Below are positions 21,129 through 42,724 of a stretch of 62,826 nucleotides of DNA, one piece after another. Origin of the DNA: an uncultured Candidatus Nemicrothrix sp. Its GTDB lineage: Bacteria; Actinomycetota; Acidimicrobiia; Acidimicrobiales; Aldehydirespiratoraceae. The notes beneath the pieces were generated by a model. That model made no database searches and was not told the origin of the DNA. It saw only the letters and a list, made by a program, of their open reading frames with translations. Numbering within the stretch: the first letter of the stretch is position 1; every line of letters begins with the position of its first letter. The stretch spans positions 1-62,826 of the forward strand of contig CAZEML010000003.1 of assembly GCA_964513285.1 (NCBI GenBank), given 5' to 3'. Position numbers and translations under genes: made by a program.

Positions 21129-21506
21129 ATGCCTCCCACGACGACCCTCGAGCCCGAGACCGACGATCACCTCAGCGTGATCTTCTCCGCCCTCGCCCAC
21201 CCCACGCGGCGCGCCATCCTCGGCCGCCTCGCCCAAGGCGAAGCGAGCGTCAGCGAACTGGCCGAGCCGTTCGCGATGTCGATGCCGGCGGTCTCACGAC
21301 ACATCCGGGTGCTCGAACACGCCGGCCTCGTGCAGCAAGGCCGCCGAGCGCAGTACCGCCCGTGCACGCTCGACGCAGCCCCGCTCGAGGCGGTCAGCGC
21401 CTGGACCGAGCAGGTCCGCGAGGTGTGGGAGACGAGCTTCGATCGCCTGGACGACTACGTCCGCCGAATCCAGCAACAGCCTGACGACCAGAAAGACCCG
21501 CAATGA
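21129..21506 (+). CDS. ArsR/SmtB family transcriptional regulator
   Basis: 125 aa with the winged HTH FSALAHPTRRAILGRLAQGEASVSELAEPFAMSMPAVSRHIRVLEHAGLV. Confidence 0.85.
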   Translation: MPPTTTLEPETDDHLSVIFSALAHPTRRAILGRLAQGEASVSELAEPFAMSMPAVSRHIRVLEHAGLVQQGRRAQYRPCTLDAAPLEAVSAWTEQVREVWETSFDRLDDYVRRIQQQPDDQKDPQ

Positions 21507-21979
21507 CCGAGTTCAAGTCCGTTGAGATCGAGCGCACGTTCGACGCCCCGATCGCCACCATCTGGCAGATGTGGACCGAAGCCGAACACTTCGCCTCCTG
21601 GTACGGACCGATGGGTGCGTCGATCCCGACGTGCGAGATGAACGTCGAGATCGGTGGCCGTCGCCACCTCTGCATGGAGATGGAGACCCCGAACGGTCCG
21701 ATGCAGATGTGGTTCGTCGGCGAGTACACCGAGATCTCCCCGATGACCCGCCTCGTCTACACCGAGTCGATGTCGAACGAGGCCGGCGACGTCCTCTCCC
21801 CTGCCGACATGGGCATGCCCGGCGACGGGCCGTCGTCCACCGAGGTCGTCGTCGAACTCACCGAGGCCGGCGATCAGACCCACATGAAGATGCAGCACAT
21901 CGGCATCCCGCACGACTCCCCCGGCGGCATGGGCTGGAACATGGCCCTCGACAAGCTCGAAGGGCTGCTGGCAGCCTGA
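21503..21979 (+). CDS. SRPBCC / AHSA1 (activator of Hsp90 ATPase homologue-like) domain protein
   Basis: 158 aa, translationally coupled to ArsR (ATGA). ERTFDAPIATIWQMWTEAEHFASWYGP is typical. Confidence 0.85.
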   Translation: MTEFKSVEIERTFDAPIATIWQMWTEAEHFASWYGPMGASIPTCEMNVEIGGRRHLCMEMETPNGPMQMWFVGEYTEISPMTRLVYTESMSNEAGDVLSPADMGMPGDGPSSTEVVVELTEAGDQTHMKMQHIGIPHDSPGGMGWNMALDKLEGLLAA

Positions 21980-21983
21980 CCGC

Positions 21984-22328
21984 ATGGCCGGCCCGCTCGC
22001 CTCCCACCGCTCGATCGCCTCGATCGGGTCGGCGTTCTCGGTCCGCTCGATCGGGTCGATGGCCTCGGTCGCGTCGATCGGATCGTTCAACTCGATCGCC
22101 TCGGTCGGCAGCGCCGGCTCGATCCTCTCGATCGGGTCGGCGGGCAGCATCGGGTCGATCGGCAGCGCGGGCTCGATCCTGTCGATCGGGTCGGCCGGGT
22201 CGATCCTGTCGATCCGAAGCAGCGGACGGATCCTCGCGATCGACAACGAGCCGATCGATCGGCAGCGGCTCACCCTCGCCGCCGCGATCACGACCACGGC
22301 GGCGGTCGTGCTTCACCGACTTCGGTGA
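21984..22328 (+). CDS. Hypothetical Ser-X-X repeat protein
   Basis: 114-aa ORF starting 5 nt after the SRPBCC stop. Ser occupies every third residue from S7 to S79 (SIGSAGSIL...), followed by a hydrophobic tail (LAAAITTTAAVVL). The antisense frame is also open, so coding status is unproven. Confidence 0.4.
   Translation: MAGPLASHRSIASIGSAFSVRSIGSMASVASIGSFNSIASVGSAGSILSIGSAGSIGSIGSAGSILSIGSAGSILSIRSSGRILAIDNEPIDRQRLTLAAAITTTAAVVLHRLR
22002..22226 (+). repeat. 9-nt periodic tandem repeat (TCG-ATC-GGN type), extremely GATC/CGATCG-rich
   Basis: 25 consecutive TCG/AGC-led triplet-of-codon units, read directly from the sequence. Confidence 0.7.
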
Positions 22329-22346: not shown

Positions 22347-23000
22347 ATGGCCCTCGCTGACGATCTCCTCGCCCTGCGCGGCACCCCTGGCGCCGCGGTC
22401 ATCTTGATGACCTACCGAGGCGATTGGTGACCGTACTGCTGCGGCCAGCTGGTTCGGCTGGCAACGGAGTACGACCGCATCCACGGCGCCGGCGCCGAGT
22501 TGATCGCGATCAGCGTCGACGATGGGGTGCGCCAGGCGGGCATGGCCGAGCGCTGGCTCTCGCCTCACACCCGGTTCGTGTCAGATCCCGGTGGCGAGAC
22601 CTACCTCCAGGCCGCCGACCTGTTCGACCCCGAGGAGCGCGGCGGCATCGCGCTGCCGGGCATGTTGATCATCTCGCCCGAGGGCGAGGAGATCTACCGG
22701 TACCAAGGTCGCGACTTCGCGGACCGCACCAACGACGACGATCTGTGGGAGGCGCTCGCCGGCCTCGACTTGCCCGCCGTCGCTCCGGAGGCGTGGAGCT
22801 ACGACGCCGAGGTCCCCGACGATCTTCGTGGCTTCTTCCGGCCCGCCGACCTCGGCCCGTACTTCCGCGGGAACATGTACGCGGCGATCGCCATCGGTGG
22901 CCGAGTCGAGGACGCCGATTCGCAAGCGATGGCGCGCGAGCACCGCATCATGGCCAAGACCACGCTCGAGGCCTGGGACGTCCTGCGCGGCAAGGGATGA
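22347..23000 (+). CDS. Peroxiredoxin-like (PRX_like2/AhpC-TSA) protein with in-frame TGA at the first CxxC position; candidate selenoprotein or pseudogene
   Basis: ATG 22347 gives MALADDLLALRGTPGAAVILMTYRGDW-TGA-PYCCGQLVRLATEYDRIHGAGAELIAISVDD..., in the same frame as track ORF 22500-23000. The TGA (22428-22430) replaces the Cys of the W-C-P-x-C redox motif. Confidence 0.5.
22437..22471 (+). promoter_or_regulatory. SECIS-like hairpin downstream of the in-frame TGA
   Basis: The apical stem GCCAGC/GCUGGC (22444-22449 / 22457-22462) closes the loop UGGUUCG. A lower stem of 2+4 bp carries an AA bulge and a G-G mismatch. The loop starts 20 nt after the UGA. Confidence 0.4.
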
Positions 23001-23287
23001 TCGTCGTTCTCGGCGACGTCGACGTTCGCCCCGAGGCGATCGATGAGGCGCTCGCCATCAGCCGCGAGCACGTCGAGCGATCGCGATCCGAACCCGGCTG
23101 CATCAGCCACGACGTCCTGACCGACCCCGACCGACCCCACCGCTTGGTGTTCGTCGAGCGCTGGGAGGGCCGCGCGGCCCTCGACCGACACTTCGAGGTG
23201 CCGGAATCGGCGGCGTTCGCTCACGCCCTCGGGCGCATAGCGGCATCACCACCGTCGATGCAGATCCTGCCCATCGTGGCGCGCTGA
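22997..23287 (+). CDS. Antibiotic biosynthesis monooxygenase (ABM) domain protein
   Basis: 96 aa from ATG 22997 (ATGA overlap with the previous stop). Sequence: MIVVLGDVDVRPEAIDEALAISREHVERSRSEPGCISHDVLTD...ERWEGRAALDRH. Confidence 0.75.
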   Translation: MIVVLGDVDVRPEAIDEALAISREHVERSRSEPGCISHDVLTDPDRPHRLVFVERWEGRAALDRHFEVPESAAFAHALGRIAASPPSMQILPIVAR

Positions 23288-23335: not shown

Positions 23336-23689
23336 ATGGCCAGCCGGACCCGACGCGCTCGATACGCCAAACGCCGAGCCAATCGGATGGCGAAGCGCGA
23401 CCACGATCTCACCGACGATCAGTGGGCGGCGCTGCAGGCGCACTGGGGCGGATGCGCCTACTGCGAGAACGACGAGGGGCCGTTCCAGAAGGACACGGTG
23501 CTCGCCATCTCCCGAGGTGGCCGCTACACCCTCGACAACGTCGTGCCGGCATGCCGGTCGTGCAACGCCAGCAAGTGCAACGACGAGGTGACGGGCTGGA
23601 TGCGGCGCAAGAAGCTCGACGAAGAGCGCTTCCTCGTTCGTCAGTACGAGATCAGCCGGGCGCTGCGCACCGACATCACGGTCGACTGA
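23336..23689 (+). CDS. HNH endonuclease
   Basis: 117 aa. CAYC...H-N-type core (DTVLAISRGGRYTLDNVVPACRSCNASK) with two CxxC pairs. Confidence 0.8.
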   Translation: MASRTRRARYAKRRANRMAKRDHDLTDDQWAALQAHWGGCAYCENDEGPFQKDTVLAISRGGRYTLDNVVPACRSCNASKCNDEVTGWMRRKKLDEERFLVRQYEISRALRTDITVD

Positions 23690-39064: not shown

Positions 39065-40612
39065 TCAGAACGGCCAGTCGGCGTCACGGCCCTGCTCGAG
39101 CGTCCGCATCAAGCTGAACGTGGCGTCGGAGAATCCGGCCAGCGTGTAGCGGCCCCGACCGCCGCTCGGCATCGACCGAGGCCGGTAACCGGCCAGGTCG
39201 ACCGTGTAGATCAGCGGCACGTGGCTCAGGCTCACCGAGCCCGAGTCGTGCATCTGATCGTCGGTGAACATCACGACTCGGTCGTGACGTCGCCGGTCGA
39301 AGTGGGCGGCGACGGCCGTGTGGCCATAGGTCGAGTGACCGACCGAGCCGACCATCGACACCAGGTCGGCCACGACACCGAGGACCGACGCGCCCTTGCG
39401 GATCCGCACGGCTCGGTTGCTGTGGCCGAAGATGACGACATCGGCGTCGTTCGATCGGGTCGCGGTGACCGCTGCCATGACCGCCGCCACCTCGACTCGA
39501 GTCATCACCGACCGGTTCGCCACCCGCGCCTGCATCGAGCCCGACATGTCGATGACCACCAGGGTTCGATCGAGCGACGGGACGTTGCGAGTCGTGAGGT
39601 CGAGCGTACGGCCGAGCGCCCGCTTCCAGTCATCCGACGGAGCGTGCGAGTACGCCGCCCACACCTGGTACGGGAAGAGGCGAGCCTTCGCCACCTCGTC
39701 CGCGTCGGTGATGCGGTCCAACACCGTCGAGATCGCCGCATCGCTGATGCCACGCTCGTCGAAGTTGCGCAGGTTGCGGATGAGCGCCATCGCACCCATC
39801 GAAGGAATCACCGACTCCCACGCCTCGGCGTCCATGCCGTCCGGCAGCCAGCCCGACAGTCGCTCCCACGAGGTACCGGCCTCGGCCAGCGCTCGCGGTC
39901 CACGCGCGGCGAGCTCGGCTCGTCGCTCCTCGACCGGGACCTTCGCGAGGTTCTCGGCCGCGGCGAGCACCGGAAGCACGTCGGCATCGGCGACGGCGTC
40001 GTCGTGGTGGCGACGGTCGAGCAGCCACGCGAACAGCGCGCTCTGACAGGCATCGCGCGGCTTCGGGTGGGTCAGCTCGATGACGTCGGCCATCCGTACG
40101 CCACGGCTCAGACCGTCGTACCGCAGAGCGGCACGCTCGGTGTAGAGCCGGGTCGCCGCGTCGGCGACGCCCCGCTTGACCGCCATCGGGAGACGGCGGC
40201 CGTGGCGCGAGTGCCAGTAGCCGATCATCTCGGCCGGCTCGTCACCGCGCTGGAGCACGGCGTCGATCACTCGACGGCCCCGCTCGCCGCCGGCCGCCAC
40301 GTACTCGGCGGCCAGGATGATCGACGCCGAACGGATCTTCAGCTCGTTGCGCAGGTACGGCGCGAGCCGGGCGACGAACTCGGGGTTCGATGCCACGGTT
40401 CGCGCGACGAGGTCGACGAACCGCTGCTCGCGGTCCTCGGCCCGCTCGTAGAACGAGTCCTCGCCGGCGAGGTACGTCGCCGCCATGAGGAAGAGCTCCG
40501 ACTCGAGGTCGGCCGCCTGGCCGCGGCCGCCCTCGTGGGTGACGAGGGCGAGCCGACCGGTCCGGAGGGAAGCGATCGGGTTGATTCGGTTGTGCTTGCT
40601 GAACGTGACCAT
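39065..40612 (-). CDS. rsr: Ro60-related protein (Rsr): TROVE domain plus vWA/MIDAS
   Basis: Track ORF 39065-40840 trimmed to ATG 40612, which is preceded by GGAAGGAGG. 515 aa. The TROVE-like N-region reads ...FLMAATYLAGEDSFYERAEDREQRFVDLV...LRNELKIRSASIILAAEY. The C-terminal vWA domain carries DMSGSM (DxSxS). Confidence 0.9.
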   Translation of the reverse strand: MVTFSKHNRINPIASLRTGRLALVTHEGGRGQAADLESELFLMAATYLAGEDSFYERAEDREQRFVDLVARTVASNPEFVARLAPYLRNELKIRSASIILAAEYVAAGGERGRRVIDAVLQRGDEPAEMIGYWHSRHGRRLPMAVKRGVADAATRLYTERAALRYDGLSRGVRMADVIELTHPKPRDACQSALFAWLLDRRHHDDAVADADVLPVLAAAENLAKVPVEERRAELAARGPRALAEAGTSWERLSGWLPDGMDAEAWESVIPSMGAMALIRNLRNFDERGISDAAISTVLDRITDADEVAKARLFPYQVWAAYSHAPSDDWKRALGRTLDLTTRNVPSLDRTLVVIDMSGSMQARVANRSVMTRVEVAAVMAAVTATRSNDADVVIFGHSNRAVRIRKGASVLGVVADLVSMVGSVGHSTYGHTAVAAHFDRRRHDRVVMFTDDQMHDSGSVSLSHVPLIYTVDLAGYRPRSMPSGGRGRYTLAGFSDATFSLMRTLEQGRDADWPF

Positions 40613-40681
40613 GATGCGGCCTCCTTCCGGCCGGGTCGGTTGATGGATAGTTGTTGATGGTTGAGCGAGCGGATCAGGGAA

Positions 40682-40740
40682 CCGGGCGGGCGAGGTCACG
40701 CCCGGCCGAGTTGACGCGGGCGCCACGGAATCGAACCGAG
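40682..40740 (-). other. Orphan T-arm-like element (CTCGG-TTCGATT-CCGTG) followed by a GC hairpin, between the Y RNA and rsr
   Basis: The GGTTCGATTCC T-loop consensus sits at 40724-40740 without a matching acceptor or D-arm. Hairpin CCGGGCG/CGCCCGG lies at 40682-40705. This is possibly a tRNA remnant or the 3' module/terminator of the Y RNA transcript. Confidence 0.35.
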
Positions 40741-40787
40741 AAACACCAGAAGAAACCCCGCCCTTCGCAGCTGATCCGCGAACGGGG

Positions 40788-40944
40788 TGATCGGATCCGG
40801 CCCGAGAACCAGAGCGGCTGGGCTCAAAGCGCTCTACCAACTGAGCTACAGCCCGAAGACGTCGGGCTGACGGGACTCGAACCCGCGACCTCTCACGTTG
40901 CAGGTGAAGAACTCCCGGCCATCACAACGGGCCGGATCCGATCA
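40788..40944 (-). ncRNA. yrlA: YrlA-type Y RNA candidate (circularly permuted tRNA mimic on a 17-bp stem)
   Basis: Hand fold. The closing helix UGAUCGGAUCCGGCCCG (40944-40928) pairs with CGGGCCGGAUCCGAUCA (40804-40788). Inside, at 40886-40831, lie T-arm GCGGG-UUCGAGU-CCCGU, an 8-bp acceptor-like stem CAGCCCGA/UCGGGCUG capped by CGUCU, then UA and D-arm GCUC-AGUUGGUA-GAGC. It lies 175 nt upstream of rsr on the same strand. Confidence 0.7.
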
Positions 40945-41050
40945 GATGTCTCCGAGAGCCAGGCGATGGAACCCCCGCGCGGACATTCAACCGACACGTT
41001 CGCAGAGAAGTAGGTCCCGTCTACGCAACGGAGACAGAAAGAGGAGTGCA

Positions 41051-41258
41051 TCGACCAGACGCGGACCGGCCCGAGAACCAGGCGAGCGAGCGTTGCCCAT
41101 CGCTGGCATCGCGGAAGCGATGCGTCTGCCAGGTCAATTGATCCCCATCTGGCTCCAAGCGGCGCGTTTCCCAGACCGCAGGGTCTCGTCCGAAGACGAC
41201 ATCGGGCGTCGGGAGGAAGTACGCCTGCTCATCGCAGCGGGCCGGCGCGCCTCGTCGA
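41051..41258 (-). ncRNA. Second Y-RNA-like long-stem RNA candidate (paralogous stem, no obvious tRNA module)
   Basis: A hand-folded helix of about 20 bp. UCGAC-g-AGG-CGCG-CCGGCCCG (41258-41238) pairs with CGGGCCGG-uc-CGCG-UCU-g-GUCGA (41073-41051), leaving a 2-nt UC bulge. It shares the boxes CCGGCCCG-yUGyGAUG and CUGGUUCU-CGGGCCGG with the YrlA candidate. Confidence 0.45.
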
Positions 41259-41289
41259 AACACTCCACACCAAGAGACATCGTTGAACG

Positions 41290-41373
41290 CGGAAGGGGTA
41301 GGAGTCGAACCCACAAGGCTTGCGCTCGGCCGGTTAGCAACCAGCTGCCGTCACCGAATCGGCTTGCCCTTCC
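41290..41373 (-). tRNA. tRNA-Ser (anticodon GCU), class II
   Basis: Reverse complement: GGAAGGG-CA-AGCC..GGCA-GCTGG-TTGCTAA-CCGGC, long variable arm, GTGGG-TTCGACT-CCTAC, CCCTTCC. C8 instead of U8. No encoded CCA. Confidence 0.85.
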
Positions 41374-41379
41374 GAGGCG

Positions 41380-41452
41380 TACCCGATGCCGGAATCGAAC
41401 CAGCGCACGCCGGGTGTAAACCGGCCGCTCTCACCAACTGAGCTAATCGGGC
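41380..41452 (-). tRNA. tRNA-Val (anticodon UAC)
   Basis: GCCCGAT-TA-GCTC-AGTTGGTGA-GAGC-G-GCCGG-TTTACAC-CCGGC-GTGC-GCTGG-TTCGATT-CCGGC-ATCGGGT. G1-U72 wobble. No CCA. Confidence 0.85.
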
Positions 41453-41471
41453 AAGGGTCTCGCGACCTGCG

Positions 41472-41545
41472 TAGGGAGGGTTGGATTCGAACCAACGACA
41501 GACCCGCTGTATCAGAACGGCGCTCTACCCCTGAGCTACATCCCT
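41472..41545 (-). tRNA. tRNA-Ile (anticodon GAU), slightly non-canonical
   Basis: AGGGATG-TA-GCTC-AGGGGTA-GAGC-G-CCGTT-CTGATAC-AGCGG-(7-nt variable)-GTTGG-TTCGAAT-CCAAC-CCTCCCT. U6-C67 mismatch. No CCA. Confidence 0.7.
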
Positions 41546-41644
41546 CTGTTCTTTGCTGCGAGTTCGCGACCTGCGGTCGCTCATGCGCAGACCCCACGAA
41601 CCGCTCGCCGGCGAAGCCGGACCGAGCTCCCCGCGAGGTACGAG

Positions 41645-41718
41645 CGCCCAGGATGGGATTCGAACCCACACCCTCTTCCGTGACAGGAAAGTGCTCTGAC
41701 CGATTGAGCTACCTGAGC
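41645..41718 (-). tRNA. tRNA-Asp (anticodon GUC)
   Basis: GCTCAGG-TA-GCTC-AATCGGTCA-GAGC-A-CTTTC-CTGTCAC-GGAAG-AGGGT-GTGGG-TTCGAAT-CCCAT-CCTGGGC. No CCA. Confidence 0.85.
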
Positions 41719-41729
41719 GAGACCATGCG

Positions 41730-41800
41730 AACCGGGAGGAGGACTCGAACCCCCATCTGCGGGTTCAGAGCCCGCCGTCGTGCCGTTTGACCATCCCGGT
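41730..41800 (-). tRNA. tRNA-Gln (anticodon CUG)
   Basis: ACCGGGA-TG-GTCA..CGAC-G-GCGGG-CTCTGAA-CCCGC-AGAT-GGGGG-TTCGAGT-CCTCC-TCCCGGT. The weak A1-U72 pair is typical of Gln. No CCA. Confidence 0.8.
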
Positions 41801-41829
41801 GTGGTTTGCGGCGAGCGCCGCAGCGATGG

Positions 41830-41906
41830 GTTGATCGATCGGAATCGAACCGACGAGTCCCAGGGTCACAACCTGGTGCGACAAACCAGCAGTCGCCTCG
41901 ATCAAC
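41830..41906 (-). tRNA. tRNA-His (anticodon GUG) with encoded G-1:C73
   Basis: G(-1)-TTGATCG-AG-GCGA-(11-nt D loop)-TCGC-A-CCAGG-TTGTGAC-CCTGG-GACTC-GTCGG-TTCGATT-CCGAT-CGATCAA-C73. A8 instead of U8. Confidence 0.85.
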
Positions 41907-41907
41907 A

Positions 41908-41983
41908 TGGAGCCCCGGGCGGGAGTCGAACCCGCTGCCTCTCGATTACGAAACGAGCGCACGTCCACACGTGCGTCCGAGGC
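41908..41983 (-). tRNA. tRNA-Thr (anticodon CGU), CCA encoded
   Basis: GCCTCGG-AC-GCAC-GTGTGGAC-GTGC-G-CTCGT-TTCGTAA-TCGAG-AGGCA-GCGGG-TTCGACT-CCCGC-CCGGGGC-T-CCA. A8. U31-U39 mismatch. Confidence 0.8.
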
Positions 41984-41984
41984 G

Positions 41985-42073
41985 TGGCGGAGAGCGTGGG
42001 GGTCGAACCCACAAGGCTTGCGCTCGACCGTTTTCGAAACGGCTGCCGTCGCCAACTGTCGGCTTGGCTCTCC
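41985..42073 (-). tRNA. tRNA-Ser (anticodon CGA), class II, CCA encoded
   Basis: GGAGAGC-CA-AGCC..GGCA-GCCGT-TTCGAAA-ACGGT, long variable arm CGAGCGCAAGCCTTG, GTGGG-TTCGACC-CCCAC-GCTCTCC-G-CCA. C8. Confidence 0.85.
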
Positions 42074-42078
42074 AGGTG

Positions 42079-42153
42079 TGGTGGGGGCACTGGGATTCGA
42101 ACCCAGGCCTCGCGGGGTAAGAGCCCGCAGCTCTTCCACTGAGCTACACCCCC
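42079..42153 (-). tRNA. tRNA-Lys (anticodon CUU), CCA encoded
   Basis: GGGGGTG-TA-GCTC-AGTGGAA-GAGC-T-GCGGG-CTCTTAC-CCCGC-GAGGC-CTGGG-TTCGAAT-CCCAG-TGCCCCC-A-CCA. Confidence 0.85.
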
Positions 42154-42157
42154 GTGT

Positions 42158-42242
42158 TGGTACTCCCCGTGGGATTCGAACCCACACGCCTCGAGGGCGA
42201 CGGGTTCTGAACCCGCTGCGTAAACCGTTCCGCCAGAGGAGC
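42158..42242 (-). tRNA. tRNA-Leu (anticodon CAG), class II, CCA encoded
   Basis: GCTCCTC-TG-GCGGAACGGTTTACGC..GCGGG-TTCAGAA-CCCGT, variable hairpin CGCC-CTCGA-GGCG, GTGGG-TTCGAAT-CCCAC-GGGGAGT-A-CCA. A37 instead of the usual G37. G1-U72. Confidence 0.8.
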
Positions 42243-42272
42243 GAGTCGCCGCACGGAGCGGCGGGTGTTGTG

Positions 42273-42345
42273 TGGTGCAGGACGGGATCGAACCGCCGAC
42301 GCGCTGCGTTTCAGACAGCCGCTCTTCCGACTGAGCTACCGCACC
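42273..42345 (-). tRNA. tRNA-Phe (anticodon GAA)
   Basis: GGTGCGG-TA-GCTC-AGTCGGAA-GAGC-G-GCTGT-CTGAAAC-GCAGC-GCGTC-GGCGG-TTCGATC-CCGTC-CTGCACC-A. No CCA. Confidence 0.85.
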
Positions 42346-42351
42346 GATGAG

Positions 42352-42426
42352 AGCCCCCGGGAGGATTCGAACCTCCGACCTCCTGGGTCGAAACCAGTTG
42401 CTCCTGATCCACTGAGCTACGAGGGC
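42352..42426 (-). tRNA. tRNA-Arg (anticodon UCG)
   Basis: GCCCTCG-TA-GCTC-AGTGGATCAG-GAGC-A-ACTGG-TTTCGAC-CCAGG-AGGTC-GGAGG-TTCGAAT-CCTCC-CGGGGGC-T. No CCA. Confidence 0.8.
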
Positions 42427-42432
42427 GAGACG

Positions 42433-42504
42433 CGCGGTGGCGAGGATTCGAACCCCGACCTTCGGGTTTGGAAGCCGCTGTGCTGCCGTTGACACCACCA
42501 CCAC
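42433..42504 (-). tRNA. tRNA-Trp (anticodon CCA), weak anticodon stem
   Basis: GTGGTGG-TG-GTGT-CAACGGCA-GCAC-A-GCGGC-TTCCAAA-CCCGA-AGGT-CGGGG-TTCGAAT-CCTCG-CCACCGC-G. Only 3 Watson-Crick pairs in the anticodon stem in my fold. No CCA. Confidence 0.6.
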
Positions 42505-42542
42505 GGTGTGATCGCAGACGGCTCCTGCCGTCAGTGACCGCG

Positions 42543-42615
42543 CTGCGAGGGGAGGGCTCGAACCTCCGCCGACGACGGGTAACAACCGTCCGCTCTGCCG
42601 CTGAGCTACCCCGCA
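42543..42615 (-). tRNA. tRNA-Asn (anticodon GUU)
   Basis: TGCGGGG-TA-GCTC-AGCGGCA-GAGC-G-GACGG-TTGTTAC-CCGTC-(6-nt variable)-GGAGG-TTCGAGC-CCTCC-CCTCGCA-G. U1-A72 and G73 as in bacterial Asn. No CCA. Confidence 0.8.
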
Positions 42616-42648
42616 AGGTTCCGCCGCGGCGAGGGCCGCGGGCGGGCG

Positions 42649-42719
42649 TATCCCGTAGGAGAATCGAACTCCTCTTTCCAGGTTGAGGGCCTGGTGTCCT
42701 ACCGATAGACGAACGGGAC
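42649..42719 (-). tRNA. tRNA-Glu (anticodon CUC), C33 in the anticodon loop
   Basis: GTCCCGT-TC-GTCT-ATCGGTA-GGAC-A-CCAGG-CCCTCAA-CCTGG-AAAG-AGGAG-TTCGATT-CTCCT-ACGGGAT-A. Loop position 33 is C, not the near-universal U. No CCA. Confidence 0.7.
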
Positions 42720-42724
42720 AAGAG

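Follow-up and report, generated by a model that had tools for sequence, protein, structure and literature searches.

The gene considered here lies on the plus strand, at 22347..23000, of a 62,826-nucleotide (nt) stretch of DNA, all of which was analysed and which is called the window below (contig CAZEML010000003.1, positions 1 to 62,826, uncultured Candidatus Nemicrothrix sp., Acidimicrobiales). Its reading frame is interrupted once, by TGA. With a probability of about 0.88, the locus encodes a 217-residue peroxiredoxin-like (Prx-like) selenoprotein with a UxxC motif (U, selenocysteine, Sec), in which UGA would be decoded by means of SelB together with a SECIS (selenocysteine insertion sequence) and which would act as a thiol:disulfide oxidoreductase or peroxidase. 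A first-pass annotation made from the sequence had already put forward a peroxiredoxin-like selenoprotein of UxxC type, together with a bacterial SECIS; the conserved TGA, the homologues with Cys and a covarying hairpin under synonymous constraint support this proposal. The published criteria for selenoproteins (PMC1088965) are a conserved in-frame TGA, Cys homologues and a SECIS-like stem-loop, and all three were found. Two characters of the Prx-like 1 class, a pfam00578 domain and UxxC at the thioredoxin (Trx)-type position, were also found.

Translation of the window gives ATG 22347 as the first start 3′ of an in-frame stop (22326-22328). From this ATG, the frame reads MALADDLLALRGTPGAAVILMTYRGDW, then TGA (22428-22430), then PYCCGQLVRLATEYDRIHGAGAELIAISVDD..., and ends with TGA 22998-23000. 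The interruption is thus as first annotated, a single in-frame TGA within W-U-P-Y-C. The proposed coding sequence of the full selenoprotein, 22347..23000, has 217 sense codons, one of them for Sec, and ends with the terminator; it rests on translation and on tblastn matches across the TGA in 80 loci. The in-frame UGA (22428..22430), read as selenocysteine, would specify residue 28, given TGA in all orthologues and Cys or Ser in distant homologues. It would open a U-P-Y-C redox motif (U28, C31), followed by C32 (22428..22439; translation and orthologue alignment). The genuine TGA terminator (22998..23000) overlaps the ATG (22997-22999) of a downstream gene encoding an ABM-domain protein (22997-23287). 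The mechanical list of open reading frames (ORFs) includes only 22500..23000 at this locus, i.e. 166 aa from a TTG start, as had been reported.

The orthologue set includes 80 loci, kept out of 151 relatives from a genome collection; with the window, the alignments have 81 rows. TGA is found at the aligned codon in 80/80 loci and is always followed by C. The comparison with orthologues was one of the checks recommended in the first-pass annotation, and TGC was found in 0/80. The flanks of the TGA are kept in frame (..L-M-T-Y-R-G-D-W-*-P-Y-C-C-[GA]-Q-L-V-[RK]-L-A..), and tblastn homology runs unbroken over the stop, from query residue ~1-8 to ~210-216. The start M of the orthologues lies 23-31 codons 5′ of the TGA. 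All nucleotide rows differ (81/81), and the orthologues reach down to 56% identity. The eight codons 5′ of the TGA have a variability of 0.09/0.03/0.29 at codon positions 1/2/3, as is typical of a translated region in frame with the downstream part. TGA is also the terminator of 55/79 of the orthologous genes. Nearly all loci are labelled Acidimicrobiales, Ilumatobacteraceae, Acidimicrobiaceae or unclassified Actinomycetota and belong to metagenome-assembled genomes (MAGs) of distinct species. To judge by its sequence, the gene is intact and is not a pseudogene.

Some members of the orthologue set deserve separate mention. Two copies of the TGA gene (L027 and L031) are found ~690 kb apart in CAVZHK010000008.1, a 1.28-Mb contig of an Acidimicrobiaceae MAG: the subfamily can be paralogous within one genome. 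Two typical Acidimicrobiales-type copies (L025 and L054) come from MAGs labelled Gammaproteobacteria and Chloroflexia, for which transfer is a less likely explanation than mis-binning or mislabelling.

A search of protein databases found 430 relatives, described here from the best 120. Nearly all of these 120 have ~183 aa, cover ~82% of the query and begin with M/V-[RK]-L-A; their start is the Val/Met codon located seven codons 3′ of the TGA. This uniform start indicates that the whole family has been systematically shortened by gene callers. Most of the ~183-aa relatives have no recorded Pfam domain. In public contigs that carry the locus (L083-L087), the gene is called as a 152-aa product without any Pfam hit. 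Public databases list it only as a shortened hypothetical protein. As a consequence for annotation, the best 120 of the 430 relatives are shortened to ~152-183 aa, have lost the catalytic residues and are mostly devoid of domain assignment.

Homologues without TGA were sought by an exhaustive search of 50%-identity representatives, in which uninterrupted homologues occur at <=54% identity. In nine fetched homologues with 31-39% identity (P0140, P0148, P0151, P0162, P0173, P0174, P0187, P0196 and P0218), the sequence at the TGA site is W-C-P-[FY]-C or W-C-S-[WY]-C, the Cys codon being TGT or TGC. Two others have Ser (AGC) at the Sec site, P0125 (54% identity) and P0139 (36%). The presence of Cys at the TGA site in distant homologues makes this a classic Sec/Cys pair, and such pairing is a criterion for true selenoproteins (PMC1088965). 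The first Ser form (P0125; L088 299-997, Logan SRR27067945) reads WSPYCC, Ser replacing Sec. In the second (P0139; L090), the hairpin described below is lost altogether.

The RNA of 22425-22485 folds into a long interrupted hairpin (-29.8 kcal/mol, z = -2.95 relative to dinucleotide shuffles, 2/200 of which fold as well). Its conservation was analysed in a gapless alignment of 84 nt around the TGA (window plus 80 loci). A single conserved helix was found, columns 27-32 pairing with columns 38-43; its six pairs are standard in 486/486 cells over the 81 sequences. This predicted SECIS-like hairpin (22445..22461, plus strand; 5′ arm C22445-U22450, 3′ arm G22456-G22461, loop 22451-22455) is delimited by covariation, RNAalifold and synonymous constraint. 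Pair 30-40 is GC in 62 sequences, AU in 8 and GU in 11, and never A-C; pair 31-39 is CG in 80 and UA in 1; pair 32-38 is UG in 65, UA in 15 and CG in 1. Compensatory changes affect two pairs of the helix. None of the shuffles matches the observed pairing or covariation score, and pairing falls to 5-51% when the 3′ partner is slid by 1 to 3 columns. RNAalifold, run unguided, predicts the identical helix. The 5-nt loop is C-G-U-G-[CA], G22452 and U22453 being invariant. In the window and three relatives, the loop is G-G-U-U-C, so that a seventh pair (G22451-C22455) closes a 3-nt GUU loop. An extended lower stem (about 22432..22473, plus strand), seen in the minimum free energy fold, is restricted to the window and its closest relatives; its outer pairs are not kept across orthologues. 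The hairpin of the first-pass annotation is thus a real fold whose apical stem is conserved, while neither its outermost pair (G22444-C22462) nor its lower stem is kept by the orthologues in general. The start of the conserved stem lies 14 nt 3′ of the UGA, and its loop is located ~20 nt 3′. Bacterial SECIS elements are described as stem-loops lying immediately downstream of UGA and having G in a small apical loop (PMC1088965); given these distances and the G in the loop, the hairpin fits this description.

The helix overlies the conserved peptide Q-L-V-R-L-A. Codon use in the hairpin was compared with the share of each codon among those of the same amino acid elsewhere in these genes. CGC is used for Arg in 0/66 cases (41% elsewhere), CTC for Leu of the 3′ arm in 0/81 (45.5% elsewhere) and GTC for Val of the loop in 0/81 (55% elsewhere), whereas GCA is used for Ala just past the stem in 51/70 (8% elsewhere). 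Codon choice in the hairpin is not free: synonymous codons incompatible with the stem or the loop are absent. The DNA of six non-Sec (Cys or Ser) homologues was used as a negative control. The six-pair helix is intact in 1/6 of them (L093, a Cys form) versus 81/81 Sec forms. The Ser form L088 keeps 5/6 pairs, with an internal C-C mismatch, its helix being broken by the Leu codon CTC, never seen in the 81 Sec forms; the other four keep 4/6, 3/6, 3/6 and 2/6 pairs. The helix being kept in Sec forms and mostly broken in non-Sec forms, selection at the RNA level acts specifically where TGA is present. These observations support the view that the hairpin acts as an RNA element under selection.

When U is replaced by C, the protein matches Pfam AhpC-TSA (PF00578; 42.8 bits, cut-off 26) and Redoxin (33 bits, cut-off 26.6) over residues 14-113. 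This AhpC/TSA (thioredoxin-fold) domain (22386..22685, plus strand), whose best Foldseek matches are PrxQ/BCP proteins, crosses the TGA, in agreement with the earlier statement that the gene spans the stop. In the AlphaFold2 model of residues 29-217 (predicted local distance difference test, pLDDT, 85), a beta-alpha core of Trx/Prx type precedes two long helices at the C-terminus (model residues 138-158 and 162-188). These helices form a predicted two-helix extension located outside the Pfam domain (~residues 166-216; 22842..22994, plus strand), which includes the conserved columns YFRGN...REH.M...AW. Among NCBIfam models, the best match is the SelL-related redox protein NF040769 (23.6 bits, below its cut-off of 120). 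The Sec-peroxiredoxin PrxU (NF040737) gives 16.7 bits, below its cut-off of 270, and the motif is UxxC, not TxxU. A sequence search of the PDB found no close solved structure, only weak ResA and spurious repeat-protein matches.

The proposed mechanism follows the established bacterial Sec pathway. SelB.GTP carrying Sec-tRNASec would bind the hairpin 22445-22461, 14 nt past the UGA 22428-22430; as a consequence, the UGA would be decoded as selenocysteine and the chain would not be terminated. By comparison with thioredoxin-fold enzymes of UxxC/CxxC type, Sec28 would be the attacking residue, the N-terminal one, in a dithiol centre of thioredoxin type, U-P-Y-C, at the start of the first helix. 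Sec28 and Cys31 would cycle between the selenol/thiol and selenenylsulfide states, reducing disulfides or peroxides; such a cycle would make the protein a thiol:disulfide oxidoreductase or a thiol-dependent peroxidase. It is from these analogies that we infer decoding by SelB/tRNASec, the incorporation of selenium and the nature of the substrate and of the physiological reductant.

Several results weigh against this selenoprotein reading. No tRNA-Sec was found in the window (ARAGORN; Rfam gathering threshold) or in loci L001-L060. ARAGORN detects 17 tRNAs in the window (40861-42799), none with a UCA anticodon; together with the Rfam result, this bears out the earlier remark that the array near the gene is devoid of tRNA-Sec. 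Four array tRNAs, with Ser, Pro and His anticodons, give 29-35 bits on the Rfam tRNA-Sec model, under its cut-off of 47. Neither selA, selB nor selD was found by tblastn with E. coli SelA, SelB and SelD in the 62.8-kb window or in a total of ~500 kb of sequence flanking the 80 loci. The Cys homologue L093 keeps a perfect 7-bp hairpin: the conserved Q-L-V-x-L peptide can yield a hairpin without Sec. The AlphaFold2 model includes neither the first beta-strand nor the Sec residue, and its Foldseek E-values are weak (0.04). Lastly, no curated model cut-off was reached in the NCBIfam search.

Two of these subjects call for a comment. In L093 (501-1142; ENA ERZ25039602 contig_27939), the Cys codon is TGT (ADWCPYCNGQLVELA) and the hairpin reads CCAGCUC GUG GAGCUGG, followed by GCA; either a Sec-to-Cys conversion has left it as a fossil, or the codons for Q-L-V-E-L produce it incidentally. 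A SelB gene adjoining the locus was considered and rejected: the two tblastn matches concerned (L037 and L045) are EF-Tu genes in a fusA-tuf-rpsJ cluster according to NCBIfam. As for the class Acidimicrobiia, a point in favour of the selenoprotein reading is that selA, selB, selC and selD are reported, in a 2026 preprint, from all genomes of Actinomarina, which belongs to another order of the class, Actinomarinales (bioRxiv 10.64898/2026.04.03.716425). This preprint alone was found when literature on Sec use in Acidimicrobiales or Ilumatobacter was sought.

Among the alternatives to a selenoprotein, the one that survives best, albeit unlikely, is recoding of the UGA to an amino acid other than Sec. 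Insertion could involve either a Cys-charged tRNASec-like tRNA acting via SelB and the SECIS, or near-cognate Trp/Cys read-through stimulated by the hairpin. The present data do not distinguish the inserted amino acid, and the Sec biosynthesis genes were not found in the window or the loci. Against this, the site is that of the nucleophilic Cys of CxxC, where Sec/Cys pairs are the rule in catalogued families (PMC1088965, PMC2398784). Moreover, a plain TGC would be a simpler means of specifying Cys, yet no orthologue uses it, and relatives of the same class have the full Sec machinery.

The production of two proteins, a 27-residue leader closed by the TGA and a protein of 183 residues with re-initiation at GTG 22449, as implied by public gene calls, is less probable still, and very improbable in absolute terms. 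A GTG or ATG seven codons past the TGA is common in the orthologues and is the start used by gene callers. The downstream protein would however be devoid of beta-strand 1 and of both redox residues of the Trx fold, and the 27 upstream codons have an aligned counterpart in uninterrupted Cys homologues, namely their beta1-W-C region. In addition, AhpC-TSA is detected only when both parts are joined, the 152-aa public calls having no Pfam hit.

The first-pass annotation had itself put forward a pseudogene, i.e. a recent TGC-to-TGA nonsense mutation inactivating a Cys-type Prx-like gene. The stop is indeed the only one in the frame, it falls on the catalytic codon and no Sec machinery is seen in the window. 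This explanation is nevertheless excluded for practical purposes by the presence of TGA in every orthologue down to 56% identity, the intact frame with purifying selection on both sides of the TGA and no decay downstream, the distant Cys homologues, and the conservation of the hairpin with its synonymous constraint; the 80 loci are not assembly duplicates, since each of the 81 rows differs from the others. Reassignment of TGA to sense throughout the genome (code 4 or 25-like), which has nothing in its favour beyond the in-frame TGA itself, is hardly conceivable, since TGA ends 41/44 long ORFs of the window with high G+C content at third codon positions (high GC3), this gene among them, and a scan for other frames interrupted by TGA gave only ordinary gene junctions. 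That scan covered the TGA codons of the window flanked by high-GC3 coding sequence; further selenoprotein genes within the window were rejected on the same result.

The gene is preceded by genes encoding an ArsR-type regulator (21129-21506) and an AHSA1/SRPBCC protein (21503-21979) and, directly upstream, by a Ser/Ile/Gly-repeat ORF of 114 aa (21984-22328, plus strand); it is followed by the ABM gene mentioned above and by a gene encoding an HNH protein (23336-23689). This order, ArsR-AHSA1-repeat ORF on one side and ABM-HNH on the other, is common only to L001-L003 and near-identical metagenome contigs. The neighbours were rejected as conserved operon partners, the neighbourhood being limited to the closest relatives; for this reason, no functional clue or partner can be drawn from it. 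The repeat ORF consists of degenerate 9/27/54-bp tandem repeats encoding ...SIGSAGSILSIGSAGSIGSIGS...; it belongs to no Pfam family, has a weak NCBIfam match to the His-Xaa-Ser repeat protein HxsA4, figures among the gene calls of related contigs and is conserved in L001 and L003.

Elsewhere in the window, on the minus strand, the 17 tRNA genes (1.9 kb, 40861-42799) adjoin a Ro60/TROVE-vWA gene (39065-40840). The ‘tRNA-Cys’ that ARAGORN places at 40861-40934 overlaps a sub-threshold Rfam match to YrlA (Y RNA-like; 40828-40893, 39.3 bits, E = 1.5e-6, cut-off 69) and may, instead of a tRNA, be the tRNA-like module of a Y RNA acting as partner of Ro60. The Ser-GCU, Pro-UGG, His-GUG and Ser-CGA tRNAs of the array score higher with the tRNA-Sec model, whose cut-off they do not reach, than with the tRNA model; this hints at unusual structures.

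The gene points to the use of Sec in Acidimicrobiales, which are abundant in soils, lakes and oceans. It provides a well-supported example of a putative bacterial SECIS with covariation from a high-GC actinobacterial lineage, which could be used to train selenoprotein predictors and could help to build an Rfam-type model. The orthologues may constitute a distinct subfamily in which Sec is apparently obligate, which combines a short N-terminus with a unique helical hairpin at the C-terminus and which is spread across Acidimicrobiales/Ilumatobacteraceae MAGs from soil, freshwater and marine environments; this broader proposal is tentative, its chances being put slightly below even. If it is true, Sec decoding would be a property of Acidimicrobiales in general, hitherto undocumented, and not just of Actinomarina, and the gene would be a convenient marker for this trait. 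The understanding of Sec decoding or of Prx-like proteins is unchanged by the finding: it is a mis-annotated new subfamily of a selenoprotein class catalogued since 2005 and holds no surprise for a specialist.

Among solved folds, the closest to the model are PrxQ/BCP proteins (PDB 5iiz, 4gqf and 3hjp; TM-scores 0.42-0.59 over ~100-115 residues), with 17-20% identity and no counterpart of the C-terminal helices. Peroxiredoxins have a peroxidatic Cys in PxxxTxxC; the protein of the window would have Sec at the Thr position, hence a Trx-like UxxC. SelL (NF040769; Prx-like2 group) is likewise a thioredoxin-fold Prx-like redox protein with Sec in a CxxC-type motif. However, SelL has UxxU, whereas the protein of the window has UxxC, scores below the cut-off of the SelL model and is not a member of this family. 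The SECIS of E. coli fdhF resembles the hairpin of the window in its position in the coding region shortly past the UGA, in the G-U of its apical loop and in the presumed SelB-dependent mechanism. The fdhF stem starts 11 nt after the UGA, versus 14 nt here. Unlike the fdhF element, the hairpin of the window has no bulged U, and its conserved part is just a 6-bp stem with a 5-nt loop (CGUGC/A); there is no Rfam model against which it could be scored.

The closest known system is the Prx-like UxxC class, catalogued since 2005: the ‘Prx-like protein’ of the Sargasso Sea (PMC1088965) and ‘Prx-like 1’ (pfam00578, UxxC) of the Global Ocean Sampling (GOS) survey (PMC2398784), in which 225 selenoprotein reads and 2,740 Cys homologues were assigned to the latter (PMC2398784). 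The protein of the window shares with this class the AhpC/TSA (pfam00578) domain, a thioredoxin-type UxxC as opposed to the TxxU of true Sec-peroxiredoxins, a hairpin just past the UGA whose small apical loop contains G, and the existence of Cys homologues. In the part of the GOS selenoprotein dataset consulted, WUPYC occurs 67 times, and in the passages inspected it stands under the Prx-like 1 heading. Supplementary Prx-like 1 sequences from that part include ..FYRGHWUPYCRRQLV.. and ..ADWUPYCKAQLV.., and the local signature [YH]RGxW-U-P-Y-C-x-x-Q-L-V is common to the class and to the protein of the window. One GOS member from it, compared with this protein, has 41% identity (E = 1e-10) over 46 active-site residues only. 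DFADRT was not found in the part of the GOS dataset searched. By comparison with GOS Prx-like 1, the subfamily of the window has a short N-terminus (~27 residues before U), without the first beta-hairpin of the Cys homologues, and a conserved two-helix C-terminal extension of ~90 residues with DFADRT and YFRGN motifs. It appears to be confined to Acidimicrobiales-type Actinomycetota. On sequence grounds, the gene belongs to the known Prx-like UxxC class, but to a separate subfamily of it.

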